This document shows positions 28,439 to 48,482 of a stretch of DNA of 64,000 nt, in pieces. Numbering within the stretch: position 1 is the stretch's first letter; each line of letters begins with the position of its first letter. Where the stretch lies: the NCBI GenBank assembly GCA_963677595.1, contig OY782041.1:1760001-1824000 (forward strand), in the 5' to 3' direction. Position numbers and translations under genes: made by a program. The notes below the pieces were generated by a model. The model was given only the letters and a program-made list of their open reading frames with translations. It was not told the origin of the DNA and searched no databases. Origin of the DNA: Spirochaetia bacterium. Its GTDB lineage: Bacteria > Spirochaetota > Spirochaetia > CAKZLE01.

Positions 28439-29821
28439 TTACCAGGATCCGCCTACAGCTGCTTCATAGAACTGCAGGAAGATCGTCAACGCCAGGATGT
28501 CGGCAGAACCTCCGGGGCTGATGTTCTCCGCGATGAACTCCCCGTCCAGCCGGGAGGCCTCCTGCAGGCCCTCAGGTCCTGAGAACCTCTCTGATCCTAT
28601 CAGGTCCTGCATCTCTCCCTGCAGCCTGAGCATCCGCTCATAGCTCGACCGGGAGATGATGTTCGTGTCCCCGGACACTGCCATGATCGCTGCCAGGGTC
28701 CTCACGCAGGCATCGTTGAACGACTGTCCGGCAGAAAGATGTTCATGCAATGTGGGGAGGGCGGTCCTGAAGACGATGGGGAAGCCTGCAGCAGCCTCTC
28801 CCCGGATGCCGGTCAGCCCGTAGCGGCTGAAGCAGCGCTTCCCCGCGGTGACAGCGGAGGAGTCAGAGAAATCGTCCATGAGATGGGTTGTCATCGCCGA
28901 GCAGGTACCGGCAAGCTGTTCCCGCGAGCAGCCTTCCGACCTCATATGGAGCCTGCCTGCCGCACAGCAGATGATGCCGAGGGAGAAGATCAAGCCTTTG
29001 TGGGTATTGACCCCGCCTGTGGCTTCGAACATGTCCAGCTCAGCCTCCCTGCCGACCGGGCGTATCAGCCCGAACAGCTTCACGGGGTCCAGTCCCGGGT
29101 TGCGTGAGCCGATGAGAGCAAGCTCCCGGAAGTAGGCACGCAGGCTCACGGCACTGTCGATGAAGGAGAAGAAGTCCATGTCGGTATGGGAGCCGCTGTT
29201 ATCACGGTCTACCAGGCCGGGCTTCGGGGTCACCGAAACCTCATAGAGCAGGGCCTTCACTGCCAGGTCTGCACAGAGTTCGGCATGCATCCCTATCTGA
29301 TGGTCCTTCATAATCTGGCAGGATGCTTCGAGGATCTCGTCCAGGCTGTGAGCACGGGAGCGTGCACAGACAGCAGCCTCCTTCCCGCAGAGCAGGCACC
29401 TTCGTTCGGGGAACCCGATCTCGGTTCGTGAGACCTTGGACCCGTCGAGCCGGATCACGTCGATGTCAAAGAGGCGCCCCAGGGGCGTCTCCTCTTCCAG
29501 TCCCGTCATGAGCCGCTTGATGGCTACTGGGTCACCCCCGGCGGGGATCAGGGCCTCATACCCGGTCGACTCCCGGGTCTCTGTCACGGCCTGCAGTGCG
29601 ATGCCCTCCGCCCGGCACCTTCGGGTGATGAGTCGCAGGCCCTCCTCGAAGGTCCGTACCGTGAGCGGGAAGACCTTGACCGGTCCCGCGATGTTCAGGG
29701 TGAAAGAGATAATGGGGGAATCGTAGGTCCCGATGAGTTCTCGCTGCAGGGCGCTGCGATGCTCCCGTGCATCGAGGATCTCCTCGAGAGTTACCTGTCT
29801 GCCTGTTACTGACGTATCCAT
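28439..29821 (-). CDS. citXG: Fused CitX (apo-citrate lyase phosphoribosyl-dephospho-CoA transferase) and CitG (triphosphoribosyl-dephospho-CoA synthase)
   Basis: N-half LEEILDARE, NIAGPVK, GRLFDIDV, RRCLLC..CARSRAH; C-half PKPGLVD, GVNTHKG, SPGGSAD. Confidence 0.92.
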   Translation of the reverse strand: MDTSVTGRQVTLEEILDAREHRSALQRELIGTYDSPIISFTLNIAGPVKVFPLTVRTFEEGLRLITRRCRAEGIALQAVTETRESTGYEALIPAGGDPVAIKRLMTGLEEETPLGRLFDIDVIRLDGSKVSRTEIGFPERRCLLCGKEAAVCARSRAHSLDEILEASCQIMKDHQIGMHAELCADLAVKALLYEVSVTPKPGLVDRDNSGSHTDMDFFSFIDSAVSLRAYFRELALIGSRNPGLDPVKLFGLIRPVGREAELDMFEATGGVNTHKGLIFSLGIICCAAGRLHMRSEGCSREQLAGTCSAMTTHLMDDFSDSSAVTAGKRCFSRYGLTGIRGEAAAGFPIVFRTALPTLHEHLSAGQSFNDACVRTLAAIMAVSGDTNIISRSSYERMLRLQGEMQDLIGSERFSGPEGLQEASRLDGEFIAENISPGGSADILALTIFLQFYEAAVGGSW

Positions 29822-30009
29822 TGAACCGCTCCCTATACCAGGTCCTTTCATTCCCCTGTTGTAAACAAGTTAGAAATATAGTCCAGAAATCTGTGTATGA
29901 CAAGCTTATAGAAAAGGGTATACAGGAGTTCGGTGAAAAGGCAGGCAGTCATACTCCAGGTTCTCCCATCGCCCGAAGCAGTATGGTATTCGTAAATGTA
30001 AGCAGAATT

Positions 30010-30040
30010 TCATAATGAATTCTAAAATGAAATTCACAAT
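30010..30040. promoter_or_regulatory. Candidate enhancer (UAS) copy 1 for the PrpR-like activator
   Basis: TCATAATGAATTCTAAAATGAAATTCACAAT; 26/31 identical to 38180-38210; about 140 bp upstream of a sigma54 site. Confidence 0.7.
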
Positions 30041-30177
30041 AGAATATATCTCAAGTAATACCTGCATGAGCCAGAGTGGCAGCATACCTTGGTTATACCA
30101 TGAACTTGTGCATGAAGTATAGTAACTGCTTGAAATAAAGAAAGATACTAAATCTTCCTTTCTCCGATGTGTTTTTT

Positions 30178-30193
30178 TGGCATGCATATTGCT
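30178..30193 (+). promoter_or_regulatory. sigma54 -24/-12 promoter
   Basis: TGGCATGCATATTGCT with GG-N10-GC spacing. Confidence 0.8.
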
Positions 30194-30248
30194 TTGGTAT
30201 CAGCACGTGGCGGCCACCCATGTTCTCTAAACAGGAAAGGTATAGAAG

Positions 30249-31130
30249 ATGAGAATTGGTTTCATAGGATTTGGTGAAGCAGCATATAATATCTCGTTGG
30301 GTCTCAAGGGAGAAGGTATGGACGGGATCATTGCGTATGATGCGATGATCGACCATGCCGAACTCGGTCCGCGGATCCGGGAGCGGGCAGGGGAGAGTGG
30401 TGTGACCATGGCATCCTCTGCTGTCGAAGTGGTGAAGGACGTTGACTACCTCTTCGTGGCAGTCCCTGCCGTGAATGCGCAGGATGTCTACCGGGAGATA
30501 GTCAGTGACCTGAGAGCTGGTCAGGTCTATATAGATGTCTGCGCAACGACCCCGGCAGTCAAGGAAGAGTTGACGAAAGGGGTGGAACAGGCAGGAGCTG
30601 TGTATGTCGATGCGGCGATGCTGGGATCGCTCCCGCTGAATAAGCATAGAGTGCCAATCACCGCAAGCGGGACCGGGGCTGCCAGGTTTCATGAGGAGAT
30701 GTCAGCATTCGGGATGCAGATCAAGTGTATCAGCTCCCAGGCAGGTGCAGCGTCAGCAGTCAAGCTGATCCGCAGTATCTTCATGAAGGGTATTGCATCC
30801 CTGATGTTCGAGATGCTTGAGGGAGCACAAGAGTATGATGTGATAGACGAGGTGGTGGAGTCCATATCCAAGTCCATGGATGGGATCCCGTTCGAGAGCC
30901 ACTTGAACCGCCTTGTCACAGGAACTGCCGTGCATGCTGCGAGAAGGGCAGCTGAACTGCAGGGGTCAGTCCAGATGCTCGCCGACTGTGATATCGACAA
31001 TGTGATGGCCATAGCTGCAAAGCACAAACATGAATTGGTTGCACAGCTGGTATCAGATAAGATGCATTCCGGCGATATCAAGGGTTACCGAGATACCATA
31101 ACGGCGATGCATGCAGCTTCAAGGAATTAG
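30249..31130 (+). CDS. NAD(P)-dependent beta-hydroxyacid dehydrogenase-like oxidoreductase (DUF1932-type)
   Basis: Rossmann motif GFIGFGEAA; ASAVKLIRSIFMKG; HAARRAAE. Confidence 0.8.
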   Translation: MRIGFIGFGEAAYNISLGLKGEGMDGIIAYDAMIDHAELGPRIRERAGESGVTMASSAVEVVKDVDYLFVAVPAVNAQDVYREIVSDLRAGQVYIDVCATTPAVKEELTKGVEQAGAVYVDAAMLGSLPLNKHRVPITASGTGAARFHEEMSAFGMQIKCISSQAGAASAVKLIRSIFMKGIASLMFEMLEGAQEYDVIDEVVESISKSMDGIPFESHLNRLVTGTAVHAARRAAELQGSVQMLADCDIDNVMAIAAKHKHELVAQLVSDKMHSGDIKGYRDTITAMHAASRN

Positions 31131-31139: not shown

Positions 31140-31841
31140 ATGCCTGTAGGAAAACGGATATATTTACAGAGGGACCTGCCTGATGCCGGGCTGGTCGAGG
31201 AGTTCAAGAACATCCCCGCATCCAATTGCGCGGATGTCATGGAGCGATCCTGCGGGATGAACCCCCGTATTCGCTTGATGAGCAGCCCGAAGAGCCAGAT
31301 GATGGCCGGGCCTGCCTTCACCGTGAAGGCACGGGCTGGGGATAACCTGCTCATCCATGCCGCACTGAACCTGGTGCAGGAAGGTGATGTGCTGGTAGTC
31401 TCGAATGAAGGGGACCAGACCCGTTCATTGATCGGTGAGGTGATGCTTGCCTACCTGTTCTTTACGAAGAAAGTGGCAGGGATCATCCTTGATGGGCCAA
31501 TCCGTGACATAGATGAAGTCAAGAACTGGGACTTCCCGATCTATGCCACCGGGACGACGCCCGGAGGTCCCTATAAGGAAGGACCGGGTGAGGTCAATGT
31601 GCCGATCTCCTGCGGGGAGCAGAGCGTGAGGCCGGGAGATATCATCCTTGCTGATCCTGACGGGATCATCGTCATACCGAGGAAGGATGCCCCATCGATC
31701 CTGGAAGATGCCAAGGCGTTCCAGGCAATGGATGAGCAGAAGCTTGAAGCAGCCAAGAACGGGACAGCGAACCGGGAATGGGTGGGCAAACTGCTTGAAA
31801 CCAAGGGGTTTGAGATAATTGATGCTGTATATCGTGATTGA
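31140..31841 (+). CDS. RraA family protein (HMG/CHA aldolase-like)
   Basis: GPAFTV..GDNL..H.AL, GEVM, DGPIRD, PGDII.AD.DG motifs. Confidence 0.88.
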   Translation: MPVGKRIYLQRDLPDAGLVEEFKNIPASNCADVMERSCGMNPRIRLMSSPKSQMMAGPAFTVKARAGDNLLIHAALNLVQEGDVLVVSNEGDQTRSLIGEVMLAYLFFTKKVAGIILDGPIRDIDEVKNWDFPIYATGTTPGGPYKEGPGEVNVPISCGEQSVRPGDIILADPDGIIVIPRKDAPSILEDAKAFQAMDEQKLEAAKNGTANREWVGKLLETKGFEIIDAVYRD

Positions 31842-31868: not shown

Positions 31869-32819
31869 ATGAAAAAGATTCTAGTAGTTCTGGTGTTATT
31901 GAGCATGATGTTCGGGTTGTACGCCCAGGGTGGACAGGAAGCTGCTGAGGGTGCCGATGCATGGCCAAGCCAGCCGATTAATGTCCTGGTTCCTGCCTCT
32001 GCCGGTGGTGGTGCTGACATCATCACTCGTATTATCATGAAATATGTAACCGAAGAGACTGGCCAGCCTGTGGTTATTACCAATATGACAGGTCTTGCTG
32101 GTTATGAGATGGTACGGAAGCAGGAAGCGAACGGGTATAACTATGTATTCGGTATCACCGGCTTGCTGATCTCGGCGGCACAGGGCCAGCTCGATTTCGG
32201 GCATGAGGCTTTTGATGCAGTATTCTGTCCGGGACTTGATTTCTCCAACGGGATCCTGGTGCGGGGTGATTCTCCCTATAAGACACTGGATGACCTGTTC
32301 GATGCGATCAAGGCTGATTCCACAAGTGTGACTGGCGGGATCTCGATGACCGGTTACCCATACCTGTGCTATAGAGGTATTGAGGATGCACTTGGGATCG
32401 ATATGTACTGTGTTGATGCAGGGAACACTGGGGAGAGAGCTGTGGCGCTGCTCGGCGGACAGGTTGATTTCATCATTTCTGGTATGGCTGCTATCACGGG
32501 ATACCTTGAATCCGGCGATTTCCGATACCTGGCTATCACCTCTGAAGAACGGAACCCCTTCATCCCTGACGTGCCGACTTTCAAGGAGCTAGGATATGAC
32601 TTCTCTTATGCTGGCCAGGGCGGATACCTGCTGGCACCCAAGGGCACTGATCCTGAGATCATCGAGAAGTTCAACTCGCTGTTCCATGATAAGATCCAGA
32701 CCAACCCTGAATACCAGGAAGAGATCTCCAGGTTCGGTATGGTCGATGTGGATTATTCCCCTGCGGAGCTTGCCACGGAACTTGATAAAGCCGCTGCAGG
32801 TTTCAAGAAATTCCTGTAA
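31869..32819 (+). CDS. tctC: Tripartite tricarboxylate transporter substrate-binding protein
   Basis: Signal peptide; WPSQPINVLVPASAGGGADIITR; ALLGGQVD; PDVPTFKELG. Confidence 0.9.
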   Translation: MKKILVVLVLLSMMFGLYAQGGQEAAEGADAWPSQPINVLVPASAGGGADIITRIIMKYVTEETGQPVVITNMTGLAGYEMVRKQEANGYNYVFGITGLLISAAQGQLDFGHEAFDAVFCPGLDFSNGILVRGDSPYKTLDDLFDAIKADSTSVTGGISMTGYPYLCYRGIEDALGIDMYCVDAGNTGERAVALLGGQVDFIISGMAAITGYLESGDFRYLAITSEERNPFIPDVPTFKELGYDFSYAGQGGYLLAPKGTDPEIIEKFNSLFHDKIQTNPEYQEEISRFGMVDVDYSPAELATELDKAAAGFKKFL

Positions 32820-32850
32820 ACTGAACGATATATAAAGGTAGAGTAGTAGG

Positions 32851-33384
32851 ATGAACAGCAAAATTGACAATTGGTTTTCCAAATGGTCAGTAAATTTCAC
32901 AACCTATAAGATGCTTGCATTGGGGATCGTGTTGATAGTCTTGTCTATCTTCATGCTCCTGCAGACACCTGGGTACGTGCGTGCCGACGGGTTGAACGCA
33001 GTGGACAGTGCTGCGTTCGCACCCCGTCTGGTATATTCGGTATTACTGATATTCGGTGTTGTGATCACTGTCCAGCAGGTACTCCTTCTTAAGGCTCTCA
33101 AGATAGAGAAAGAGGAGATGACTGTATCAAAAGACGATAATGCGGGGAATCAGAAAGCTCTACTCATCCTGGGCACTATATTAGTGTATATAGTGCTCAT
33201 GTATATCCTTGGTTTTATTCTAGCCTCGATCCTTTACCTGATGAGCAATATGATAATCATGTCGGAAAAAGGGTCGAGGAATATCAAAATGTATCTGTTG
33301 ATTTCGGTGATCATCTCGGTCGTCGTATATTATTGTTTTAAAGAATTCATTTTTGTGAATTTGCCGACAGGTATGCTGTTTTAG
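32851..33384 (+). CDS. tctB: Tripartite tricarboxylate transporter small subunit
   Basis: 4-5 TMs, AFAPR, C-terminal F.VNLPTG; lies between tctC and tctA. Confidence 0.85.
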   Translation: MNSKIDNWFSKWSVNFTTYKMLALGIVLIVLSIFMLLQTPGYVRADGLNAVDSAAFAPRLVYSVLLIFGVVITVQQVLLLKALKIEKEEMTVSKDDNAGNQKALLILGTILVYIVLMYILGFILASILYLMSNMIIMSEKGSRNIKMYLLISVIISVVVYYCFKEFIFVNLPTGMLF

Positions 33385-33403
33385 GCAGCGGAAGAGGTTT
33401 ACT

Positions 33404-34921
33404 ATGTTTGCTGCGTTAATTAGCCTTCTCACACCATTGAATATTCTGTTAGTGGTCTGCGGTGTCATTGTCGGTATCCTGTTCGGGGCTATCCCGGGGT
33501 TGAGTTCCACCATGGCGATAGCTCTCTTCCTGCCTGTTACGTTCGCCTTCGATGTGACGAGTGCTTTCGTCCTTCTGACGGCTCTCTACATAGGGGGGGT
33601 CTCTGGAGGCCTGATATCCGCGATCCTGATCAATATACCCGGATCTGCGATGTCCATAGCCACCACGTACGACGGGTCGCCTATGGCGAAGAACGGACAG
33701 GCTCACAGGGCATTGGGCATCGGTATCGTGTTCTCCTTTCTCGGGACCATGTTCGGTCTCATCGTCCTCATCGCTGCAGCTCCGCCCCTATCAAGTCTCA
33801 CGATCAAGCTGAGCTCGTATGACTTCTTTGCCTTGACGTTATTGTCGTTGACGCTTATCTCAGGGGTCTCTGGCAAGAATATGATGCTGGGATTGGTATC
33901 AGGTTTCATCGGGCTTGCTATCGCGATGGTCGGGATAGCCCCGATCGACGGAGTCCCGCGCTATACATTCGGGAACTACCAGCTGTTGAATGGGTTCTCA
34001 CTCCTTCCGGGAGTCATCGGGTTATTCGCCGTGACGGAGATCATGAAGTCCGTGAGTGAGATGCATAAGAAGCCTGTGATCAAAGCTGAAACAGAGCGGG
34101 TGAGGGGATTCGGCTTTACGTTTCGTGAAATGATAGGCCAGACGAAGAATTTTCTCATATCCTCGGTGATTGGGTTGGTCGTTGGGTTCCTGCCTGGTAT
34201 GGGCGGTTCCCTGGCGAACCAGGTTGCGTATGCCGCTGTCCAGAAGAACTCAAAACATCCTGAGAAGTTCGGGACCGGTATCATGGATGGTATCGTCGCA
34301 TCGGAATCCTCGAACAATGCCTCTATCGGCGGGGCTATGATTCCGCTGCTTACCCTCGGTATTCCCGGGGACGGCCCGACAGCCATGCTGCTCGGTGCCT
34401 TCATGATCCATGGGGTAGTACCGGGGCCTCTGCTCTTCACAACAAGTAAGCCATTGGTGAACTTGATCTTCCTCTCGCTGATAGTCTGTTCAGTTGTCAT
34501 GCTGTTCATCGAGTACTATGGCTTGAGGCTGTTCGTGAAAGCCTTAAATGTCCCAAAAGCGATTCTACTCCCGGCGATCCTCGTCTTGTGTACGGTAGGG
34601 TCCTTCGCGAATAACAACACGATGTTCGATGTCTGGACGCTGTTGATCTTTGGTGTGTTCGGGTATCTCCTGCATAAGATGAAGGTTCCCCGGGCTCCGA
34701 TGGTCTTGGGATTCGTGCTTGGGCCGGCGGTCGAGACCCATCTGCGGCGAGCCGTTCAGCTTAGCCGGGGCTCTATCACGCCGTTCTTCACTCACCCGAT
34801 CAGTGCGGTGCTGCTTCTGGGAAGCCTGGTCATTATCGTGCTTTCTTTTGTAGCCCAATTCAAGTCGATAAAGGAAGAGAAGCTCAAGGCCGCAGCAATG
34901 CAGGCTGGTGAAGGGAAGTGA
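33404..34921 (+). CDS. tctA: Tripartite tricarboxylate transporter large subunit
   Basis: GAIPGL, SAILINIPG, ESSNNA..GG.MIPLLTLGIPG motifs. Confidence 0.93.
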   Translation: MFAALISLLTPLNILLVVCGVIVGILFGAIPGLSSTMAIALFLPVTFAFDVTSAFVLLTALYIGGVSGGLISAILINIPGSAMSIATTYDGSPMAKNGQAHRALGIGIVFSFLGTMFGLIVLIAAAPPLSSLTIKLSSYDFFALTLLSLTLISGVSGKNMMLGLVSGFIGLAIAMVGIAPIDGVPRYTFGNYQLLNGFSLLPGVIGLFAVTEIMKSVSEMHKKPVIKAETERVRGFGFTFREMIGQTKNFLISSVIGLVVGFLPGMGGSLANQVAYAAVQKNSKHPEKFGTGIMDGIVASESSNNASIGGAMIPLLTLGIPGDGPTAMLLGAFMIHGVVPGPLLFTTSKPLVNLIFLSLIVCSVVMLFIEYYGLRLFVKALNVPKAILLPAILVLCTVGSFANNNTMFDVWTLLIFGVFGYLLHKMKVPRAPMVLGFVLGPAVETHLRRAVQLSRGSITPFFTHPISAVLLLGSLVIIVLSFVAQFKSIKEEKLKAAAMQAGEGK

Positions 34922-34966: not shown

Positions 34967-36103
34967 ATGTTTGACTTACTGATCAAGAATGGTGAACTGC
35001 TCGGGCTCGGCAGCGGGCACGCAGGTGTCGGTGATATAGCGGTAAAGGGGAACAGGATCGCGAAGATCGGCAAGGTTCCCGAGGCTGAGGCCTCCCGCGT
35101 CATCGATGCCGCGGGCTGTATCGTGAGCCCGGGACTCATCGATTTCCACCTGCACCTCTCCCCCCTGGCAGAGATCGGGGTCTGCGGGGAAGCGGCATGT
35201 TTCCCCTCAGGTGTGACGACTGCGGTGGACTGCGGCAGTGCCGGGGTCGGGACCTATCTCGGTCATCGTCCGGCTCTTGCTGCAAGCCGACTCGGGGTCT
35301 ATACCTTCCTTCACGTAAGTTCAGCCGGGCTCGCTACCGGCAGTTATCTTGAGAATGCAGACCCAGCATACTTCAACCGCGCGAAGATCATCGAGCACTT
35401 CGAGCGCTGGGGGGAAGAGGAACTGATCGGGCTGAAGATCCGTCAGGGAAAGGAGATCGTCGGCGATCTCGGGCTGGAGCCCCTCCGTGAGACGATCGGG
35501 ATAGCCGATGAACTGCAGGTGCCGGTGATGGTCCACTGTTCCAATCCGCCGAGTTCTATCGACAGCATGCTCGACCTGCTGCGCCCTGGGGATATCATCA
35601 CCCATGCGTACCAGGATAACGGCGGCAGTATCCTGGGGAGCGATGGCGCCGTATCGAGCAGGGCGAGAGCCGCACGTGCACGCGGGGTGCTCTTCGATGT
35701 CGCTAATGCGAACATCCATTTCTCGTTCAAGGTGGCGAGACAGGCCATCAGTGAAGGATTCCTGCCGGATACCATCAGCACTGACCTCACCACACGGAGC
35801 CTTTATTACCGCCCGAATGTGTTCAACCTGCTCCATGTCATGTCGAAATACCTGAATATGGGGATGTCGATTGAACAGGTGTTCGAGCGCTGCACCATCA
35901 AGCCCGCGCAGATCATTGGGAGGAAGGGGCTGACCGCGACCCTCGAGGAGGGGCACCTTGCCGATATCGCCGTCATTCGCAAGATCAGGAAAGATGTCAT
36001 CTTCGGCGATCGTGTCGGAGAAACGCTGCAGGGTGCATTCTTCCTGAAAGCGATGGCTACGATCAAGGATGGCATGCTGGTGTACCGCGACCAGGAATTC
36101 TAA
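34967..36103 (+). CDS. Dihydroorotase-like amidohydrolase/deacylase
   Basis: PGLIDFHLH, GVTTAVDCGSAG, GLKIR, VMVH, GDIITH, PDTISTD motifs. Confidence 0.85.
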   Translation: MFDLLIKNGELLGLGSGHAGVGDIAVKGNRIAKIGKVPEAEASRVIDAAGCIVSPGLIDFHLHLSPLAEIGVCGEAACFPSGVTTAVDCGSAGVGTYLGHRPALAASRLGVYTFLHVSSAGLATGSYLENADPAYFNRAKIIEHFERWGEEELIGLKIRQGKEIVGDLGLEPLRETIGIADELQVPVMVHCSNPPSSIDSMLDLLRPGDIITHAYQDNGGSILGSDGAVSSRARAARARGVLFDVANANIHFSFKVARQAISEGFLPDTISTDLTTRSLYYRPNVFNLLHVMSKYLNMGMSIEQVFERCTIKPAQIIGRKGLTATLEEGHLADIAVIRKIRKDVIFGDRVGETLQGAFFLKAMATIKDGMLVYRDQEF

Positions 36104-38136: not shown

Positions 38137-38179
38137 ACTGGGCAGGGTGAGCAGTAGTGAAACGTGCTTCACAGAAATG

Positions 38180-39339: not shown

Positions 39340-40290
39340 TCACACAGTATAGAACTTCCTGATCCTTGTCTTGCACATCTCGATGAAATCAGAGGCTGCA
39401 TCTGAGAGGTACCGGTCCCGGTGGTAGGCAACCACCAGGTTGCCTATCGTCTCCGGGTCGTCGATGGGGAAGAAGTATACCGGGGATTTCTGTTCGTGGA
39501 GCATGAGCGGGCTCAGGTGCTTGACGAACATCTCGGGATAGATGGTCACCCCCATCTCCTCCCCGGCAAGTGAGAGCAGCGACTCGATGCTCTCCATCTC
39601 CATCTTGATGTTCACCTGGATTCCGTGCTTGTTCAGGTAGTGGTCGAGGAGGGTGCGTATCCGGTTCCCGGAGTTCAGGATCAGGAAGGGGTAGTCCTTG
39701 ATGAGGGCGAGGTTGAACCCCTTCTTGAATTCCACGATCTTCTCCTCGTGGGTGCCGGGGAACAGTTCCTTGATGTATCGCTGGGGGACGACGGCGAAGA
39801 GGCTTTCCTGGAGGATGTCGATCGTCTCGGCGGCGTCCAGGTTGATCGGGGAGAACCCGATGATCAGGTCGATCTGGCCGTGCTGCAGCCAGTTCTCGAG
39901 GGCCTCGGAGTTCCCCTCCTTGATGATGATCTCGATGAGGGGGTACTTCTTCGAGAACAGCGGCAGCACCTGCGGGAGGAAGACACGCCCCCGGGTATGG
40001 GAGATCCCGATGCGCAGCTCCCCCCGCTTCAGGTTGTTGATGTCATCGAGTTCCATGATCATCTGCCGCTTCGTGTCCAGCAGGCGGGTCGCCGCCTTCA
40101 GGAAGCACTTACCGGCATAGGTCAAGGATAGCGAAGGAGATCGTTTGAAGAGTTCGGCACTCACCTCCTCCTCCAGCCTGATGATGTGCTTGCTCAAGGA
40201 CTGCTGGGAGATGAAGAGCCGCTCTGCTGCCCGGGTGATGTTCAGCTCCTCGGCAACGGTGACGAAGTACTGGATAGTGAGGAAATTCAT
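39340..40290 (-). CDS. LysR family regulator
   Basis: MNFLTIQYF..NITRAAERLFISQQSLSKHI HTH; AGGAGG RBS before ATG 40290. The ORF-track extension to 41007 is antisense to aconitase. Confidence 0.9.
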   Translation of the reverse strand: MNFLTIQYFVTVAEELNITRAAERLFISQQSLSKHIIRLEEEVSAELFKRSPSLSLTYAGKCFLKAATRLLDTKRQMIMELDDINNLKRGELRIGISHTRGRVFLPQVLPLFSKKYPLIEIIIKEGNSEALENWLQHGQIDLIIGFSPINLDAAETIDILQESLFAVVPQRYIKELFPGTHEEKIVEFKKGFNLALIKDYPFLILNSGNRIRTLLDHYLNKHGIQVNIKMEMESIESLLSLAGEEMGVTIYPEMFVKHLSPLMLHEQKSPVYFFPIDDPETIGNLVVAYHRDRYLSDAASDFIEMCKTRIRKFYTV

Positions 40291-40505: not shown

Positions 40506-42470
40506 ATGGGACAGAACATACCAGAGAAGATCCTGTCGGCACACCTGGTAGAGGGTGAGCTGAAAGCAGGGAACGAGATCGCGGTGAAGATCGACCAGAC
40601 ACTGACGCAGGACGCGACGGGAACGATGGCGTACCTGCAGTTCGAGGCGATGGGGATCGACCATATACAGAACGAGTTGGCGGTGAGCTATGTGGACCAC
40701 AACACGGTGCAGGTGGGGTTCGAGAACGCGGACGACCACCGGTACCTGCAGTCGGTGGCACAGAAGTACGGGATCGTGTTCTCCCGGCCGGGGAACGGGA
40801 TCTGCCACCAGGTACACCTGGAGCGGTTCGGGATCCCGGGCAAGACGCTGTTGGGATCAGACTCGCACACGCCGACCGGCGGCGGTATCGGGATGCTGGC
40901 GATGGGTGCCGGCGGGATCGACGTGGCCGTGGCCATGGGCGGGGGAGCCTTCTACATGAGCGCGCCGAATGTCGTGCGCATCGAGCTGGAAGGCAAGCTC
41001 CGGCCATGGGTCTCGGCGAAGGACGTGATCCTGAAGGTCTTGAGCATCTTCTCGACGAAAGGGAACGTGGGGACGGTGCTGGAGTACGGCGGGCCCGGGG
41101 TCGATACCCTCGACGTGCCGGACCGTGCGACGATCACGAACATGGGAGCCGAACTCGGGGTGACGACCTCGATCTTCCCGAGCGATGAGAAGACGAAGGC
41201 GTTCATGGAAGCCCAGGGGCGGGGAGCCGACTGGGTGGAGCTGAAAGCGGATGCCGATGCGGAGTATGCCCGGACCGTGACGATCGACCTGAGTGAGCTG
41301 GAACCGCTGACAGCGGCACCGCACTCACCGGGGAACATCGAGACGGTGAAGGGACTTGCAGGGAAGCGCGTAGACCAGGTGCTCATCGGGTCCTGCACGA
41401 ACTCCTCCTACCGGGACCTGGTGACCGTCGCGGAGATCCTCGACGGGAAGCGGGTGGCCCCGGGCGTGAGCCTGGGTATCGCGCCGGGTTCAAGGGAAGT
41501 ACTCACGATGCTCGCGCGGGACGGGTACCTGACGAAGCTGATCGAGTCGGGGGCACGGATCCTGGAGAGTGCCTGCGGGTTCTGTATCGGCAACCACATG
41601 TCGCCGAACAGCGAAGCGGTCTCGCTGCGGACATCGAACCGGAACTTCGAGGGGAGATCGGGGACGAAGTCGGCCCAGGTCTACCTGGTGAGCCCGGAAG
41701 TGGCAGCCTTGGCGGCGATCACGGGAGCGTTCACCGACCCGCTGGCAGACAACGGGATAGCCTATCCTGCGGTGGGGATGCCGAAGGAGTTCATCATCGA
41801 TGACAGCATGTTCATCTTCCCGACAGAAGACGGGGGCGATACCGAGATCCTGCGGGGACCGAACATCGGGGCACCGCCGGTGAACACCGGACTGCCGGAA
41901 GCACTGAAGGGTGTGGCGACACTGAAGGTAGGGGAGAAGATCACGACCGACCACATCATGCCGGCAGGAGCACGGCTGAAGTACCGGTCGAACGTGCCGA
42001 CCTACTCACAGTATGTGTTCGAGCCGATCGACCCGCAGTTCCCCACACGGGCGGCAGCGAACCGGGACGCGGGGATCGACAACATCATCATCGCCGCAGA
42101 CTCGTACGGGCAGGGCTCGAGCCGGGAACATGCGGCATTATGCCCGATGTACCTGGGGGTGAAGGCGGTGGTGGCGACCTCGATCGAGCGGATCCACATG
42201 GCGAACCTGTTCAACTTCGGGATCGTGCCGTTCATCTTCGCAGACCGGGAGGATTACGACCGGATCGACGAGGGGGATGAGCTGGAGATCGCGGGACTGG
42301 CCGAGGCGATCAGGAGTGCCGGTGAGCATGGGGGCATCGTGAAGATGGCCAACAAGACGAAGGGGACCGAGATCCCGCTGAGAGCGGAGTTCACGGCCCG
42401 GCAGATCGGGCTGCTGGAAGCAGGCGGGCTGCTGAACTACACGAGCGCACAGCAGGGGGAACAGGCATGA
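40506..42470 (+). CDS. acn: Aconitate hydratase (about 650-aa form)
   Basis: [48 protein letters not shown] motifs. Confidence 0.93.
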
Positions 42471-44704
42471 CGATAGCGCAGACAGAACCGAAGATCATCT
42501 ACACGATCACCGATGAGGCGCCGGCACTGGCGACGGCATCATTGCTGCCGATCATCCGGGCCTATACGGCCGCGGCAGGGGTGACGGTGGAGACCCGTGA
42601 CATCTCGCTCTCCGGGCGGATCCTGGCGCACTTTCCAGAGGCCCTGTCCGCAGGGACCGATGACCTGGCAGAGCTGGGGGAGCTGGTGAAGGCGCCTGAG
42701 GCGAACATCATCAAGCTGCCGAACATCAGCGCATCGGTACCGCAGTTGAAGGCCGCAATCGCCGAACTGCAGGGGAGGGGGTACGCGGTACCCGACTACC
42801 CGGAGAGCCCTGCGAGTGAGGACGAGCAGGAGGTGCGGAAGCGGTATGACGCGGTGAAGGGGTCAGCGGTGAACCCGGTGCTGCGGGAAGGGAACTCGGA
42901 CCGGCGGGCACCGCAGGCGGTGAAGGCGTATGCGCAGAAGCACCCGCACAGCATGGGGGCCTGGGAAGCAGGCTCGAAGAGCCATGTGGCAAGCATGGAG
43001 GACGGGGACTTCTACGGGAGCGAGCAGTCGGTGGTGACCGAGGGCCCGACGAGCGTGGATGTGGTACTCAAAGGCGCAGACGGCACGCAGACGGTCCTGA
43101 AGGCGGGACTGAAGCTGCAGGCAGGGGAGATCCTCGACTCAGCGGTGATGAGCGCAGGGAAGCTGCGGAGCTTCTTAAAGAGAGAGATCGCCGATGCGAA
43201 GAAGCAGGGAGTACTCTTCTCGGTCCACCTGAAGGCGACGATGATGAAGGTATCGGACCCGATCATCTTCGGGCATGTGGTCTCGATCTACTATGAGGAG
43301 CTGTTCGACACCTACGGCGAGCAGCTCGCATCGGTGGGTGCAGACCCGCGGATGGGGATGGCAGACCTGGAGAAGCGGATCGCGGGGTTGAAGCCGGAAG
43401 AGCGGGAAGCGATCGAGGAAAAGATCGCAGCGATCTACCGTGATCAGCCGGAGCTTGCGATGGTGAACTCCGAGCGGGGGATCACGAACCTGCACGTATC
43501 GAGCGACATCATCATCGACGCGTCGATGCCGGCAGCGATCCGGAACTCCGGGAAGATGTGGGGCGTCGACGGGAAGCTGAAGGACATGAAGGCCGTGATC
43601 CCTGACCGGAGCTATGCAGGGGTGTATGCCGAGACGATCGCGTACTGCAAGGCGAACGGGGCGTTTGACCCGAGAACGATGGGCGACGTGTCGAACGTGG
43701 GGCTGATGGCGCAGAAGGCCGAGGAGTACGGGTCGCATGACAAGACCTTCGAGATGCCGGGAAGCGGCGTGGTGGAAGTAGTCGATGCAGACGGCACCGT
43801 ACTGATGGCGCAGGCCGTGGAAGGCGGGGACATCTTCCGGATGTGCCAGGTGAAGGACGCCCCGGTGCGTGACTGGGTGAAGCTTGCCGTGAGGCGTGCG
43901 AAGGCGACGGGGAACCCGGCGGTCTTCTGGCTTGACGAGGCGAGGGCCCATGATGCGCAGCTGATCAGGAAGGTGCGGACCTACCTGGCCGAGGAGGAGA
44001 CAGACGGGCTGGAGCTGACGATCGCCTCCCCTGAGGAGGCGACGAAGTGGACGCTCGAGCGGCTGAAGCGGGGAGAGGACACGATCTCGGTGACGGGGAA
44101 CGTGCTGCGAGACTACCTGACGGACCTGTTCCCGATCCTGGAACTGGGGACGAGTGCGAAGATGCTGTCGATCGTGCCGCTGATGGGCGGGGGCGGGCTC
44201 TTCGAGACGGGAGCCGGCGGGTCCGCGCCGAAGCATGTGCAGCAGCTGCAGGAGGAGGGCCACCTGAGGTGGGACTCGCTCGGCGAGTTCCTTGCTCTGG
44301 CGGCCTCGCTCGAGCACCTGGGGACGGTGTACGGGAACCCGAAGGCCCTGGTACTGGCGAAAGCGCTGGACCGGGGGACGGAAGTATTGCTGGAGGAAGG
44401 CAAGTCGCCGTCGCGTAAGGTCGGGGAGATCGACACGCGGGGCAGCCACTACTACCTGGCGCGATACTGGGCGCAGGCGCTCAGTGAGCAGGATGAGGAT
44501 GAGGAGCTCTCTGAGCTCTTCCGGCCGCTGGCGAAGGAGTTCACGGTGAAGGAAGAAGCCATCACCTCCGAACTGCTGGCAGTCCAGGGGAACCCGACGG
44601 ACATCGGGGGGTACTACTGCCCCGATGAGGCGGTCAAGGCACAGGCTATGCGCCCGAGCAAGACGCTCAATGCCGCACTGAAGTTGATCTCAGGCGAGAT
44701 GTAG
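42467..44704 (+). CDS. icd: Monomeric NADP-dependent isocitrate dehydrogenase
   Basis: [59 protein letters not shown] motifs. Confidence 0.96.
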
Positions 44705-44720: not shown

Positions 44721-45017
44721 ATGGAATTGGTGAAGACCGGGATCTCAGGGACCCTGGAATCAAGCGATATCATGGTGACGATCAAGCAGGCCGATGAGGC
44801 TGGGATCGACATTCAGCTTACCAGCATCGTGGAGAAGCAGTTCGGCGCCGTGATACGGAAAGTCATAACCGAGACACTCAACGCGCTGGAGATCGAATCA
44901 GCCACAGTCGAGGCTGTCGACAAGGGAGCCCTGGACTGTACGATACGGGCACGCGTGAAGACCGCTGCCTACCGGGCATGCGAGGTGTCCAGGAAAGAGT
45001 GGGAGACAGGGAAATGA
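44721..45017 (+). CDS. citD: Citrate lyase acyl carrier protein (gamma)
   Basis: GTLESSD (prosthetic-group Ser), VEKQFG, DKGALDC. Confidence 0.95.
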   Translation: MELVKTGISGTLESSDIMVTIKQADEAGIDIQLTSIVEKQFGAVIRKVITETLNALEIESATVEAVDKGALDCTIRARVKTAAYRACEVSRKEWETGK

Positions 45018-45901
45018 GACATGAACACTTAAGAAGGACTATGCTGTTCGTCCCGGGGAACAATCCCGGGATGATACAGGATGCGTATATCTACGGAAGT
45101 GACAGCATCATGTTCGACCTCGAGGACTCTGTCTCCATCCTGGAGAAGGACGCTGCCAGGGCCCTGGTCTATGAGGCCCTGACGACCCTGGACTTCAACG
45201 GGACAGAGATCGTGGTCAGGGTCAATTCGCTGGACTCCGAGATGGGGATCGATGACCTTGAAGCGATGGTCCGGGCACAGCCGCATGTGATCAGGCTCCC
45301 GAAGACGGAGACAGCTGATGACATCATCGTGTGTGAGCGGGAGATCGCACGCATCGAGAAGGAAGCAGGTATCCCGGTCGGTACGACGAGGATGATAGCT
45401 GCCATCGAGTCTGCTGCCGGTGTGCTGAACGCGAAGGAGATCGCCCTCGCGAGCGACCGCCTCGTCGGTATCGCGCTCGGGGCTGAGGACTATGTCACCA
45501 ACCTGAAGACGAACCGCTCGGAAGACGGCATAGAGCTCCTCTTCGCCAGGAGCATGATCCTTCTCGCCGCACGTGCAGCCGGGATCGCCGCGATCGATAC
45601 CGTCTACTCCGATGTCGACAATGAGGAGGGCCTCAAGAAAGAGGCCTCGCTCATCAAGCAGCTCGGCTTCGACGGGAAGTCGGTGATCAACCCGAGGCAG
45701 ATAGCTATCATCAATGAGATCTACACACCGAGTGAGAAAGAGATCAAGAAGTCGAGGGCCGTCCTTGAGGCCATCGCCGAAGCGAACAGGAAGGGAAGCG
45801 GGGTCATCGCCCTGAACGGGAAGATGATCGACAAACCGGTCGTCGAGCGTGCGCAGCGGGTGATTGACCTGGCATTCGCCTCCGGGATCATCAAGGATTA
45901 G
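45014..45901 (+). CDS. citE: Citrate lyase beta subunit
   Basis: LRRTMLFVPGNNP, FDLEDSV, GAEDY, GKMIDKP; ATGA overlap with citD. Confidence 0.95.
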   Translation: MRHEHLRRTMLFVPGNNPGMIQDAYIYGSDSIMFDLEDSVSILEKDAARALVYEALTTLDFNGTEIVVRVNSLDSEMGIDDLEAMVRAQPHVIRLPKTETADDIIVCEREIARIEKEAGIPVGTTRMIAAIESAAGVLNAKEIALASDRLVGIALGAEDYVTNLKTNRSEDGIELLFARSMILLAARAAGIAAIDTVYSDVDNEEGLKKEASLIKQLGFDGKSVINPRQIAIINEIYTPSEKEIKKSRAVLEAIAEANRKGSGVIALNGKMIDKPVVERAQRVIDLAFASGIIKD

Positions 45902-45912
45902 GGGGAGAACAT

Positions 45913-47445
45913 ATGGAACTGAAAGATATACCGCATATCGGGGAACTCTCCGGTATAGACAGGGCCTTCGACAGCGGGAAGATTAACAAGGATACCAGGA
46001 GTCTCAAGGAGCATTCCGAGAGCTCGGTCAAGGTACTGGCCTCCATCCAGGACGCGATCCGCGCTACGGGGCTGCGGGACGGCATGACTGTGAGCTTCCA
46101 CCACCATTTCAGGAACGGGGATTACGTCCTGAACATGGTCCTCGACGAGATCGCCGCCATGGGGATCAGGGACCTCACTCTGGCCCCGAGCTCCCTGCAG
46201 GAGATCCATGAACCGCTGATCGAGCATATCAGAAACGGTGTGGTGAAGCGCATCGAGACCAGCGGCCTGCGGGGTAAGCTCGCAGGTGAGATCTCACGGG
46301 GGCTCATGGACTATCCCGTGGTCTTCCGCAGCCACGGCGGCCGGGCATATGCGATCGAGACCGGGAAGCTGAAGATCGACGTCGCTTTCCTTGGGGCACC
46401 TGCCTGTGACCCCTTCGGCAATGCGAACGGCTATTCGAGGGAGGATGACTCCAGCGTCATCTGCGGGTCCTTGGGCTATGCGAAATGCGATGCCCAGTAC
46501 GCAGGACAGGTCGTCATCATCACGGATAACATCGTGCCGTTCCCCAACGCCCCCTTCGGCATCCCTGAGTCGGATGTAAACTATATCGTCAAGGTCGACA
46601 GGATCGGGGACCCGAACGGGATCATGACCGGGGCCACCCGGTTCACCAAAAACCCGAAGGACCTCATCATCGCCGAGCAGGCCGCGAAGGTGATCGATGC
46701 CAGCGGGAAGCTCGTGAACGGGTTCTCCATCCAGATGGGGTCCGGTGGTGCGTCCCTGGCGATCACCCGATTCCTTGAGGCGAAGATGATCGAGAAGGAC
46801 GTGAAGGCCTCCTTCGCACTGGGGGGGATCACCGGGTCGATGGTCGCGCTCTTCGAGAAGGGGCTGGTGAAGAAACTGCTCGATGTGCAGAGTTTCGACC
46901 TGGATGCGGCGAAGTCGCTGATCAACAACCGGTTCCACCAGCAGATCTCGGCATCGTACTATGCGAGCCCGGGAAACAAGGGGAGTGCGGTCAACCAGCT
47001 CGATATCGTGATCCTCTCGGCGATGGAGATCGACCTCGACTTCAACGTCAATGTCCTCACCGGCTCCGACGGTGTGATCCGGGGAGCGATCGGCGGACAC
47101 TGTGACACTGCCGCCGGTGCGAGCCTGACGATCATCGTCTGCCCGCTCTGCAGGGGGAGGATACCGTCAGTCGTCAGGAAGGTGAACACGATCGTGACTC
47201 CCGGGAAGACCATCGACGTGGTCGTCACCGACCAGGGAGTCGCCGTGAACCCGCGGAGGCGGGACCTCGAGAAGACTTTGAGGGAGCGGGGCATCAATGT
47301 CCGTTCCATCGACGAGCTCTGTACCCGTGCTGAGAAGATCGCGGGGAAGGCCGTGCCGATACGCTATACCGACAAGGTCGTCGGGGTAGTCACCTACCGT
47401 GACGGCAGCGTCCTTGATGTCGTCCGGCAGGTCGAGGAGGACTGA
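45913..47445 (+). CDS. citF: Citrate lyase alpha subunit
   Basis: SFHHHFRNGD, RSHGGR, GSGGASLA, GGHCDTA motifs. Confidence 0.96.
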   Translation: MELKDIPHIGELSGIDRAFDSGKINKDTRSLKEHSESSVKVLASIQDAIRATGLRDGMTVSFHHHFRNGDYVLNMVLDEIAAMGIRDLTLAPSSLQEIHEPLIEHIRNGVVKRIETSGLRGKLAGEISRGLMDYPVVFRSHGGRAYAIETGKLKIDVAFLGAPACDPFGNANGYSREDDSSVICGSLGYAKCDAQYAGQVVIITDNIVPFPNAPFGIPESDVNYIVKVDRIGDPNGIMTGATRFTKNPKDLIIAEQAAKVIDASGKLVNGFSIQMGSGGASLAITRFLEAKMIEKDVKASFALGGITGSMVALFEKGLVKKLLDVQSFDLDAAKSLINNRFHQQISASYYASPGNKGSAVNQLDIVILSAMEIDLDFNVNVLTGSDGVIRGAIGGHCDTAAGASLTIIVCPLCRGRIPSVVRKVNTIVTPGKTIDVVVTDQGVAVNPRRRDLEKTLRERGINVRSIDELCTRAEKIAGKAVPIRYTDKVVGVVTYRDGSVLDVVRQVEED

Positions 47446-47453
47446 AGTTTTTT

Positions 47454-48482
47454 ATGGAATCCGGTTATGAAGTCCGGGAGATTCATGGGATCAGGACAGA
47501 TTCCATGCTCTATCATGATTTGACGGACTTCCTCGAGGAGAACCACCTCGTGATCGATGGGAGCATCGATCACACCGTCACCATCGTTGATGGGGACGGC
47601 CGCCTCATTGCCAGCGGTTCCTCCTCTGGGAATGTCATCAAATATCTGGCGGTCTCAGCCTCTCACAGGAGTGAGGGGCTGCTAGCCCCGATCCTGACCG
47701 CCCTCATCCGGGAGATCACGAACAACGGCGGGGATAAGATCTTCATCTACACCGCGCCCGGGAACGAGGACCTGTTTCGGGAGTTCGGGTTCTTTCCCGT
47801 GGCACGGACGGATGAGATCCTGCTGCTGGAGAACCGTAAGGACGGGATCGGGAGATGGCTCAAGCGTGTCGGGACTGAGACCGAACAGCTCTTCGGAAAG
47901 GGCGATGGCCCCAGGAGGGTCGGGGTCATCGTCATGAACTGCGACCCCTTCACCAGGGGCCATCGCTACCTCATCGAGTACGCCGCAGCACGGAGTGACA
48001 TCCTCCATATCTTCATCCTCTCCTCCGGAGGGACCTTCACGCCTCAGGAACGGTATGCGATGGTCGAGGCAGGAACAGCTGACCTGGGTAACGTGATGCT
48101 TCACAAGGCCTCTGACTATATGGTCTCCCCGGCTACCTTCCCGACCTACTTCATCAAGGCCGAGAAGCCGATGAGCGAGGTGAGCTGTGCCCTTGATATA
48201 CAGATCTTCACCCGGGTCATCGCCCCTGCATTGGGGATCACGCTGCGGTTCGTGGGGACCGAACCCTACTGCCCCGTGACCTCGGTCTATAACCGGATGA
48301 TGCAGGAGGCATTGCCAGGCCAGGGGATCGAATTCATCGAGATTCCCAGGTTCGAGTTTGATGGCCGTGCAGTGAGCGCCTCCGAGGTCAGGAGGCATTA
48401 CCATGCCGGGGATTGGGAATCACTCGAACCGCTGGTCCCCCCAACGACCTATGAGATCCTGCGGGGGCTGCCGGGGAGATAG
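47454..48482 (+). CDS. citC: [Citrate (pro-3S)-lyase] ligase
   Basis: N-terminal GNAT-like part; VMNCDPFTRGHRYL, SPATFPTYF, RFVGTEP, SASEVR. Confidence 0.93.
   Translation: MESGYEVREIHGIRTDSMLYHDLTDFLEENHLVIDGSIDHTVTIVDGDGRLIASGSSSGNVIKYLAVSASHRSEGLLAPILTALIREITNNGGDKIFIYTAPGNEDLFREFGFFPVARTDEILLLENRKDGIGRWLKRVGTETEQLFGKGDGPRRVGVIVMNCDPFTRGHRYLIEYAAARSDILHIFILSSGGTFTPQERYAMVEAGTADLGNVMLHKASDYMVSPATFPTYFIKAEKPMSEVSCALDIQIFTRVIAPALGITLRFVGTEPYCPVTSVYNRMMQEALPGQGIEFIEIPRFEFDGRAVSASEVRRHYHAGDWESLEPLVPPTTYEILRGLPGR

Follow-up and report, generated by a model that had tools for sequence, protein, structure and literature searches.

Why do the citrate lyase genes of a Spirochaetia bacterium bracket an operon for an oxidoreductase, an RraA-family enzyme, an importer and a hydrolase? 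We analysed a 64,000-nucleotide stretch of its genome (the window: positions 1,760,001 to 1,824,000 of contig OY782041.1, assembly GCA_963677595.1). The genome, G000, is one contig of 4.33 Mb (C1; 95.4% complete, 6.3% contamination); L numbers denote compared loci. An original prediction, made from the letters of the window, had proposed that a citrate or isocitrate conjugate is imported and hydrolysed to feed citrate lyase, with RraA possibly replacing oxaloacetate decarboxylase. We find that the citrate lyase part is ordinary. The interest of the locus lies in a widespread module of a DUF1932 oxidoreductase and RraA with its own regulon, which is coupled here to citrate lyase and to a spare pair of genes for aconitase (acn) and isocitrate dehydrogenase (ICD, gene icd).

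An alignment-based scan of genome contigs returned 332 DUF1932 relatives, and the locus counts given here refer to the best 80 of the 332 with 10 kb on either side; in 49 of the 80 the contig extends 8 kb or more to each side. RraA is encoded in 72 loci, within 3.5 kb of DUF1932 in 66. Further neighbours are TctA (33/80), a hydrolase of any kind (39/80; amidohydrolase 34-35, metallo-beta-lactamase (MBL) 10, DUF6282 4), LysR (31/80), a sigma54 activator (17/80), a D-2-hydroxyacid dehydrogenase (14/80), Ldh_2 (9/80) and, by best match, Kor-type (4/80) and SucD-like (2/80) genes. Carriers vary by locus between tripartite tricarboxylate transporter (TTT), CitMHS, DASS, MFS, GltS-like and DctM types. 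Because carriers and hydrolases vary, and because a Rhizobium plasmid carries only LysR, an SLC13 carrier, DUF1932 and RraA, the DUF1932-RraA pair emerges as the core of the module, which needs neither hydrolases nor citrate lyase. The original prediction had listed the oxidoreductase in the operon and then passed over it; as the DUF1932 enzyme it is the most informative gene of the locus. The neighbourhood comparison that the prediction proposed thus reveals a recurring module (DUF1932-RraA in 72/80 loci) without recurring citrate lyase linkage (4/80). We found no published description of the module in a literature search with incomplete coverage of subscription journals.

Cultured carriers of the module are Acidaminobacter hydrogenoformans DSM 2784, Clostridium symbiosum ATCC 14940 and Pelosinus propionicus DSM 13327. 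Of 44 anaerobe-type module genomes, 30 contain citF, within 20 kb of the module in 2, and the other 14 gave no citF match; for comparison, 67 of 301 class genomes are citF-positive, a baseline that is not a matched control. Kor- or Hgd-type genes occur in 13 of the 14 citF-less module genomes, as the 2-oxoglutarate route proposed below would allow; these families are common, some Kor matches are partial and a matched control is lacking, so that we do not count this as evidence. A metagenome scan with the amidohydrolase alignment gave mostly distant relatives among the matches listed, with the module RraA in 2 of 80 loci and cit genes in none. A role of the recurring D-2-hydroxyacid dehydrogenase as a 2-hydroxyglutarate dehydrogenase found no support, its best matches being phosphoglycerate and glyoxylate enzymes. 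A dimeric-ICD-like candidate open reading frame (ORF) lies at the edge of L054.

The gene map of the window was drawn from the ORF list, family scans and translations (29 ORFs, 21.5-54.3 kb). Each gene named in the original prediction is present at its position and in its order between 28439 and 48482 (HMG, 4-hydroxy-4-methyl-2-oxoglutarate; HTH, helix-turn-helix):

28439..29851, minus strand: citX-citG fusion (holo-acyl carrier protein synthase plus triphosphoribosyl-dephospho-CoA synthase; TIGR03124 162.2 > 105.25, TIGR03125 294.7 > 272.3), sole copy in G000
30006..30041, plus strand: predicted upstream activator site 1 for the PrpR-like activator (12-bp tandem repeat, 37.7 bits)
30177..30193, plus strand: predicted sigma54 -24/-12 promoter of the DUF1932 operon (9/9 consensus positions)
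30249..31130, plus strand: DUF1932 oxidoreductase, beta-hydroxyacid-dehydrogenase fold (PF09130, 49.4 > 25, E 4e-13)
31140..31841, plus strand: RraA/HMG-aldolase-fold enzyme, PRK06201 subfamily (NF004850, 233.6 > 231)
31869..34921, plus strand: tctC-tctB-tctA, TTT importer (PF03401, PF07331, PF01970), with tctC at 31869-32819
34967..36103, plus strand: dihydroorotase-like binuclear amidohydrolase, PRK12394-like (NF009060 382.9 < 442)
36211..38136, plus strand: PrpR-like sigma54 activator (PrpR_N, PAS, AAA and HTH by domain scan)
38176..38211, plus strand: predicted upstream activator site 2 (40.4 bits, top match of the genome)
38342..38358, plus strand: predicted sigma54 promoter of the MBL gene (8/9 consensus positions)
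38441..39319, plus strand: B3-like MBL-fold hydrolase without signal peptide (NF033105 188.9 < 240; HxHxDH at 96)
39340..40290, minus strand: LysR regulator, divergent from acn (PF00126, PF03466)
40506..42470, plus strand: acn, aconitase (PRK07229 above cut-off)
42467..44704, plus strand: monomeric icd, NADP isocitrate dehydrogenase (TIGR00178 above cut-off)
44721..48482, plus strand: citD-citE-citF-citC, citrate lyase and ligase (all four above NCBIfam cut-offs; 17-bp step after icd)

The LysR protein is taken as 316 amino acids because the 555-residue ORF (to 41007) overlaps acn and its HTH starts at residue 245.

The window RraA passes its subfamily model and fails the LigK/GalC models (117.7 < 304.5 and 137.1 < 179 for TIGR02798 / PRK09262); its identity to LigK-type enzymes is 25-28%. 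Its best match in the PDB is 3NOJ (E 7e-26). The catalytic Arg-Asp pair (R122-D123) and G99 are invariant across 13 sequences, four LigK-type ones among them, while Glu100 stands where those four carry Asp. According to the available text of PMC5065237, the R123K replacement in the 3NOJ enzyme lowers kcat 181-fold, the HMG/CHA aldolase of P. putida (CHA, 4-carboxy-4-hydroxy-2-oxoadipate) catalyses both aldol cleavage and oxaloacetate decarboxylation, and the role of RraA/HMG-aldolase homologues outside aromatic clusters is called unknown. The window enzyme is predicted to be a retro-aldolase or beta-keto-acid decarboxylase. Such chemistry yields 2-oxo acids and carbonyl compounds, never citrate. 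The window enzyme shares the catalytic Arg-Asp with the HMG/CHA aldolases LigK/GalC/PmdF (P. putida F1, 3NOJ) and differs in subfamily (PRK06201), in Gly-Glu for the Gly-Asp of LigK and in its fermentative partners. No dioxygenase, LigU/PrpF or LigJ/GalB hydratase is encoded among the 29 ORFs, so the locus is not a ring-cleavage cluster. Elsewhere in the genome, three RraA paralogs at G000:C1:1391229-1402353 are accompanied by a LeuC/LeuD-like dehydratase pair and an ABC system of the peptide type and make up a further organic-acid cluster, and in L097:11768-13441 an AtuA-family gene and DUF4387 follow RraA.

The DUF1932 enzyme is modelled with confidence (predicted local distance difference test 91) as a Rossmann domain plus the helical DUF1932 domain. 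Its best fold matches are the uncharacterised 3QSG (TM score 0.88), 4EZB and 1I36, followed by beta-hydroxyacid dehydrogenases of the 3-hydroxyisobutyrate dehydrogenase (HIBADH) type. Asp31 makes it likely that the enzyme is NAD-linked. Seven polar residues (K172, R175, S176, K180, H229, R232, E236) are invariant over 14 DUF1932 sequences including those linked to the lig/gal clusters of aromatic ring cleavage, and would fit a polycarboxylate substrate. K172 lies in the dimer helix and is presumably the counterpart of the catalytic lysine of HIBADH. Among 138 plasmid records with a DUF1932 relative we opened 11 regions. Six of them (Roseomonas, Novosphingobium, two Agrobacterium, Thermus, Klebsiella) are lig/gal clusters with a distant DUF1932 relative and a CHA aldolase; the remaining five combine DUF1932 with an RraA-family gene outside ring-cleavage clusters. 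The available text of PMC12710314 ascribes 'no known role' to the NAD(P) oxidoreductase retained in lig/gal clusters, and that of PMC12314914 contains nothing on DUF1932.

The locus is predicted to comprise two regulatory units. DUF1932 is preceded at 72 bp, and the MBL gene at 99 bp, by a predicted sigma54 site, and each of these two promoters has a predicted activator site upstream, the arrangement of a sigma54 enhancer-binding regulon. For comparison, the whole of G000 contains 46 sigma54 sites with at least 8/9 positions. The activator-site matrix was trained on four upstream repeats, none from the window and one from the related genome G401; the two window sites are the first (38176) and second (30006) genome-wide in G000, and the next, unrelated match scores 26.5 bits. 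Of 12 related loci, 9 have a sigma54 site of at least 7/9 in front of DUF1932; the other three are flanked by LysR or RpiR. On the strength of the matching promoters and activator sites, the DUF1932-RraA-tctCBA-amidohydrolase operon and the separately promoted MBL gene form one predicted regulon. Full-length orthologs of the activator (46-68% identity) stand beside the module in eight loci, with one more at 44%. PrpR itself is the propionate regulator; the window activator has the same PrpR_N-PAS-AAA-HTH build and works with sigma54 promoters by prediction, and it differs from PrpR in scoring below the model cut-off (TIGR02329, 337 < 499.2) and in having no prpBCD genes near it among the 29 ORFs. 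No sigma54 site of at least 7/9 precedes acn, the activator gene or citXG in the window, and acn-icd-citDEF-citC makes up a second predicted unit behind the divergent LysR, which is 31-38% identical to LysRs of other module loci and 31% identical to the LysR of a cit cluster. A paralogous cluster at G000:C1:1049350-1060629 contains a PrpR-like activator (35%), a TTT, a B3-like MBL (35%) and a D-2-hydroxyacid dehydrogenase, a sigma54 site at 1058548, and DHDPS-like, PdxA-like and Fe-ADH-like ORFs that were judged by eye from their sequence starts.

The importer and hydrolases would fit an acid that is taken up and likely opened by hydrolysis. TctC of the window is 72-81% identical to module orthologs and 24-31% identical to TctC of standard citrate lyase clusters; its matches in the PDB, at 20-30%, give no ligand clue. 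The amidohydrolase has its six metal-centre residues H61, H63, K157, H190, H213 and D273 invariant across 32 sequences, its best families are PRK12394/COG3964-like (besides NF009060, NF006689 with 313.2 against a cut-off of 371), and its best PDB matches are 8JE0 'Amidase' (E 4e-76) and 2OGJ (E 7e-50). It is predicted to be a lactonase, esterase or amidase. In dihydroorotase the substrate-binding Arg follows HxH by two residues (Arg20 in E. coli) and 2OGJ does without it, as given in the available text of PMC12524618. A dihydroorotase function was rejected for the window enzyme, which carries Ser65 at that place and scores 50-52 bits with dihydroorotase models whose cut-offs are 279-728. With the COG3964 hydrolases (Atu3266 = 2OGJ; 8JE0) it shares the binuclear metal ligands and, like 2OGJ, lacks the substrate Arg; it differs in forming a separate clade with close orthologs at 48-76%. 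Ornelas and colleagues are said to have found in 2013 that Atu3266 hydrolyses O-acyl-(R)-2-hydroxy acids. The available text of PMC11354265 shows no link to 8JE0.

The MBL-fold protein has its metal ligands (HxHxDH at 96, His 173 and His 241) in alignment with 6E0S and 2GMN. The highest 9-residue hydropathy in its first 35 residues is -0.69, versus 3.5 for TctC. A role as an exported resistance enzyme was rejected on the score below the NF033105 cut-off and the lack of a signal peptide, and the protein is predicted to be a second, cytoplasmic lactonase or lactamase. An Atlas search with it returned unnamed MBL clusters only. The following observations concern the hydrolase families more widely. 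A second MBL gene of G401 (L026:4663-5574) lies upstream of citXG, has no sigma54 or activator site and is 78% identical to the window MBL, as compared with 62% for the syntenic one. Protein P0213 (279 amino acids) has both amidohydrolase and MBL Pfam matches, possibly a fusion or a frameshift. DUF6282 proteins are found in the Acidaminococcus-type module loci L043, L046, L054 and L059 and in the ring-cleavage cluster of Thermus oshimai (L121:4728-5648), which has no annotated LigI; DUF6282 is a candidate lactonase family.

By its family scores the citrate lyase set, CitDEF with CitC, CitX and CitG, is complete (citD 115.2 > 63.5, citE 464.9 > 443.4, citF 737 > 501.45, citC 287.9 > 262.1). CitF is 56-59% identical to those of standard spirochaete clusters. 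The nearest relative of CitE is the module-linked CitE of G401 (77%), not a CitE from the standard clusters that same-genus genomes carry (branch support 85/93, not starred). The acn-icd pair is a spare copy: window positions 40506-44675 match C1:3477830-3481996 with 96.9% nucleotide identity, which begins exactly at the acn start codon, is confined to the two coding regions and looks like gene conversion or recent recruitment. Since citrate synthase (C1:3483408-3484745) adjoins the other acn-icd pair, biosynthesis is already covered in G000. The genome contains one citC and one citXG only, and no standard tct-linked citrate cluster. A second citE-citF pair at G000:C1:3341901-3344285, with CitE at 240.7 against the cut-off of 443.4 and no citC or citXG nearby, is likely a lyase for another acid; same-genus genomes likewise have a second, low-scoring citF.

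The original prediction had further taken it as odd that neither an oxaloacetate-consuming enzyme nor a known citrate carrier accompanies citrate lyase. Among the 29 ORFs there is indeed no oad, malic enzyme, CitAB or CitT/S/M gene. The oddity disappears at the scale of the genome, where an OadA-like biotin protein (317.9 < 756.5) stands beside an OadB that passes TIGR01109 (C1:1335086-1338062) and a malic-enzyme domain protein is encoded elsewhere (C1:1251xxx). No 2HCT/CitS carrier was found in G000, CitT, CitM and CitAB not having been searched genome-wide. In the class sample of 301 genomes, 67 of them citF-positive, citF regions were fetched from 13 picked for high score and usable contigs. 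The tctCBA genes adjoin citDEF in 10 of these 13, mostly as citC-D-E-F-tctCBA-citXG with a two-component system, and an oadAB-like pair stands beside citrate lyase in one (by eye). In this class it is therefore usual for a TTT to take the place of CitT/CitS/CitM and for the oxaloacetate enzyme to be unlinked, so that the missing carrier is no clue and RraA need not replace oxaloacetate decarboxylase; its adjacency to DUF1932 in 66 loci, compared with cit genes in 4, also speaks against such a replacement. The oadAB-type and malic-enzyme genes elsewhere in G000 go halfway towards one of the outcomes that the prediction named as its refutation, co-induction of such a gene with citDEF.

Citrate fermentation clusters of the citCDEFXG type are known from Klebsiella, E. 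coli and lactic acid bacteria, and the window likewise has complete lyase, ligase and prosthetic-group enzymes. It shares these, a TTT and unlinked oxaloacetate enzymes with the standard Spirochaetia cluster, from which it differs in having no two-component system, in a TTT of another type, in the junction with spare acn-icd and in being split by the module.

An indication that the module and the citrate lyase unit may work together comes from G401, a Sphaerochaetaceae genome. Its locus L026 has the order MBL > citXG < icd > DUF1932 > RraA > tctCBA > amidohydrolase > activator > MBL > citDEF > citC, so that in G401 as in G000 the module lies between citXG and citDEF. Here icd has its own sigma54 site (8/9) with an upstream predicted activator site of 26.1 bits, and citDEF-citC directly follows an MBL gene with a sigma54 promoter (7/9; 30.8 bits). 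The module-linked icd and citrate lyase of G401 are spares, because the genome has a second icd and a standard citC-D-E-F-tctCBA-citXG cluster elsewhere. An RraA ortholog was found in 3 of 401 class genomes and in 1 of 251 genomes of the family of G401; the icd-cit link occurs in G000 and G401 only among those. The most syntenic other operons, in the spirochaetes G402 and G403 (L027/L028), continue into Kor-type alpha and beta genes and an acylating aldehyde dehydrogenase nearest SucD (best PDB match 8CEI, E 2.6e-160, next 3e-99). No citF was found in these two genomes, which are 98-99% complete as G043/G069, and the Pelosinus loci L076/L078 also run into Kor-type genes. Conversely, G000 and G401 lack HgdD, glutamate mutase and a KorA ortholog, for which there are partial matches at 37-38% identity, that of G000 being VorB-type. 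The four spirochaetes thus show a complementary distribution, icd with citrate lyase in G000 and G401 and Kor without citF in G402 and G403. As 2-oxoglutarate is the sole metabolite taken by both ICD and Kor, it suggests itself as the meeting point.

Based on these data we tentatively prefer, at somewhat short of even chances, a route that opens a lactonised hydroxy-polycarboxylate, oxidises it and splits it to give 2-oxoglutarate for fermentation via reverse ICD, aconitase and citrate lyase. TctCBA would import the acid or its lactone, and amidohydrolase and/or MBL would open lactone, ester or lactam forms. The DUF1932 enzyme, with its beta-hydroxyacid-dehydrogenase fold, would oxidise a hydroxyl to a 2-oxo group with NAD+. 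RraA, with its fold and catalytic Arg-Asp, would cleave a C-C bond and pull the unfavourable oxidation, which may explain why the two genes stay together. The cleavage may be a retro-aldol reaction (a CHA homologue giving pyruvate and 2-oxoglutarate) or a decarboxylation (of oxalosuccinate from an unusual isocitrate isomer). The spare ICD would carboxylate 2-oxoglutarate, aconitase would form citrate and citrate lyase would release acetate and oxaloacetate; the genes are in place and the direction is our proposal. Oxaloacetate would leave via the OadAB-type pump or the malic enzyme encoded elsewhere.

The last steps have a precedent. Carboxylation of 2-oxoglutarate by ICD, followed by aconitase and citrate cleavage, is a reverse segment of the tricarboxylic acid cycle in Chlorobium, which has a monomeric ICD, and in glutamate-grown Acidaminobacter hydrogenoformans; our literature search found no paper supporting the reverse-ICD route in Acidaminobacter. 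The same three enzyme types are encoded here, and A. hydrogenoformans has its icd inside a citrate lyase cluster. The locus differs in that a dedicated module would supply the acid that we propose as feed, with the direction proposed from the genes.

Several observations weigh against this route. The lig/gal analogy alone predicts pyruvate and oxaloacetate, not 2-oxoglutarate. Only four loci have cit genes within 10 kb of the module (L026, L031, L039, L056), and three of these belong to the 49 with full flanks; monomeric icd occurs in 1 of 80. In L031 the cit genes nearby form a divergent paralog cluster, and in L039 and L056 their proximity may be due to chance. The close icd-cit link rests on two genomes of one origin, G000 and G401 (66-90% identity), and the module was not found in the same-genus genomes G001 and G002. 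In the window acn-icd-citDEF-citC is regulated apart, as neither a sigma54 nor an activator site was found there; the region upstream of acn scores 7.3 with the activator matrix. The 26.1 bits of the G401 icd site are no higher than the best background of G000 (26.5), and this score and that of the MBL site in G401 lean on a matrix that includes one G401 site. G401 has a single, unlinked acn with no activator site above background, and no site above 24 was found in the activator-linked loci L030, L031, L035, L038 and L040, one of which had contributed to the training set. The labels 'Kor-type' and 'SucD-like' reflect best matches and imply no substrate specificity. Finally, citrate lyase clusters that include acn and/or icd but no module occur in G237 (L136), Acidaminobacter (L224) and G406 (L223). 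L136 (G237:C1:1292000-1311900) reads LysR < acn - PrpF-type isomerase - tctCBA - citDEF, a candidate trans-aconitate fermentation operon, and L224 (G404:C27, A. hydrogenoformans) unites a PrpF-type gene, tctCBA, two LysR genes, citEF, citC, a dimeric NADP-ICD and citXG. As a separate observation, divergent citEF paralogs cluster with LeuC/LeuD-like pairs in L115 (G406:C93), L117 and L222, citrate-lyase-like complexes for other acids; L115 also contains a second TTT, a D-2-hydroxyacid dehydrogenase and a second RraA.

Such clusters, the separate regulators of the window and the 76 of 80 module loci without cit genes are what one would expect if the two units were independent neighbours. The module would then act like LigK and cleave an acid of the CHA or HMG (parapyruvate) type, or the lactone or reduced 2,4-dihydroxy form of such an acid, to pyruvate and oxaloacetate, and LysR-acn-icd-cit would be an ordinary citrate, aconitate or 2-oxoglutarate cluster that landed alongside. 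This account, which we regard as possible though doubtful, is also favoured by DUF1932 standing beside CHA aldolase in lig/gal clusters, by DUF6282 in both the Thermus ring-cleavage cluster and four module loci, and by the D-2-hydroxyacid (14/80) and Ldh_2 (9/80) dehydrogenases, which fit C2 epimers of a 2,4-dihydroxy acid. It does not explain why G401, despite its standard cluster, keeps spare icd and citrate lyase genes in the apparent regulon of the module and in another gene order, nor why citXG and citDEF bracket the module in both genomes, and the window RraA is distant from LigK-type enzymes. The tie of the module to icd and citrate lyase may thus be real in this lineage. That much of the original prediction, the feed into citrate lyase and ICD, stays plausible here, with the same module and spare genes in G401, while cit genes occur in four of the 80 module loci.

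The citryl or isocitryl conjugate of that prediction, hydrolysed to citrate or isocitrate for citrate lyase while ICD diverts part to glutamate and RraA decarboxylates oxaloacetate, is unlikely. In its favour, G000 and G401 have hydrolases, TTT and a complete citrate lyase set side by side, the former genome lacks the standard cluster, the HMG/CHA aldolase does have oxaloacetate decarboxylase activity (available text of PMC5065237), and citF is commoner in module genomes (30/44) than in the unmatched class sample (67/301). Against these points stand the OadAB-type and malic-enzyme genes of G000, a TctC that is not of the citrate-cluster type, the absence of citF from G402/G403 and of hydrolases from 41 of 80 loci. 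DUF1932 would be left without a role, the hydrolases being accessory and the dehydrogenase-aldolase pair, from which no citrate arises, the core. An undescribed pathway for a TTT-imported organic acid, which the hydrolases likely open, survives from the prediction; the identity of the acid as a citrate or isocitrate conjugate is not supported. Other substrates, namely a siderophore (citrate plus 2-oxoglutarate), ascorbate-breakdown compounds, hydroxycitrate, tartrate and 2-pyrone-4,6-dicarboxylate (PDC), were set aside on chemical grounds; they need absent enzymes or leave DUF1932-RraA unexplained.

GarL and GarR are an aldolase-reductase pair, and the module likewise joins an aldolase to a beta-hydroxyacid dehydrogenase, its aldolase being of another fold. 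By this analogy RraA would split a 4-hydroxy-2-oxo acid into pyruvate and succinate semialdehyde, and DUF1932 would reduce the aldehyde to 4-hydroxybutyrate, or the SucD-like enzyme would oxidise it. The DUF1932 fold group does include gamma-hydroxybutyrate dehydrogenases and tartronate semialdehyde reductase, L027/L028 have the SucD-like gene, 4-hydroxybutyrate CoA-transferase-like genes lie near L041 and L046, and L041 has an HpaB/AbfD-fold gene, presumably AbfD judging by its sequence start. We nevertheless hold this to be quite improbable: icd and citrate lyase of G000 and G401 would go unexplained, both genomes lack a KorA ortholog to reach 2-oxoglutarate, and in lig/gal clusters with a retained DUF1932 gene the aldolase reaction yields no aldehyde. 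A further variant, also unlikely, is that the two enzymes DUF1932 and RraA together carry out the oxidative decarboxylation of an isocitrate stereoisomer, released from its lactone, that is no substrate for ordinary ICD and aconitase. Re-carboxylation of 2-oxoglutarate by the spare ICD would close a stereo-inversion loop, neutral in redox and CO2, that supplies citrate lyase. If true, this would provide a function for the orphan oxidoreductase of lig/gal clusters too.

The surroundings of the locus are consistent with lateral acquisition. On the left (26627-28259) lie an HTH plus IrrE/ImmA-type metallopeptidase gene and a 164-residue partner without Pfam match, a toxin-antitoxin-like pair, and on the right (48503-49771) a PIF1-like helicase gene. 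Together with the absence of the module from the same-genus genomes, these flanks suggest an acquired island. The genes further out look unrelated to the module: a dihydrodipicolinate synthase (DHDPS)-family gene, a Phd antitoxin-like ORF and molybdenum-cofactor genes at 21471-26213, and an AGE-type epimerase, DUF4434 and sugar ABC permeases at 50129-54316.

Two annotation gaps meet in this module, that of RraA/HMG-aldolase homologues without aromatic pathways and that of the NAD(P) oxidoreductase of lig/gal clusters (available texts of PMC5065237 and PMC12710314, respectively), and with its binding protein and its sensor the module is open to ligand screening. As predicted from their sequences, B3-like MBL genes in such anaerobes can be cytoplasmic metabolic hydrolases and not resistance genes. 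If the route via 2-oxoglutarate is true, it would add a fermentable organic acid for anaerobes of rumen, gut and sediment, and ICD, aconitase and citrate lyase would be run backwards for catabolism.

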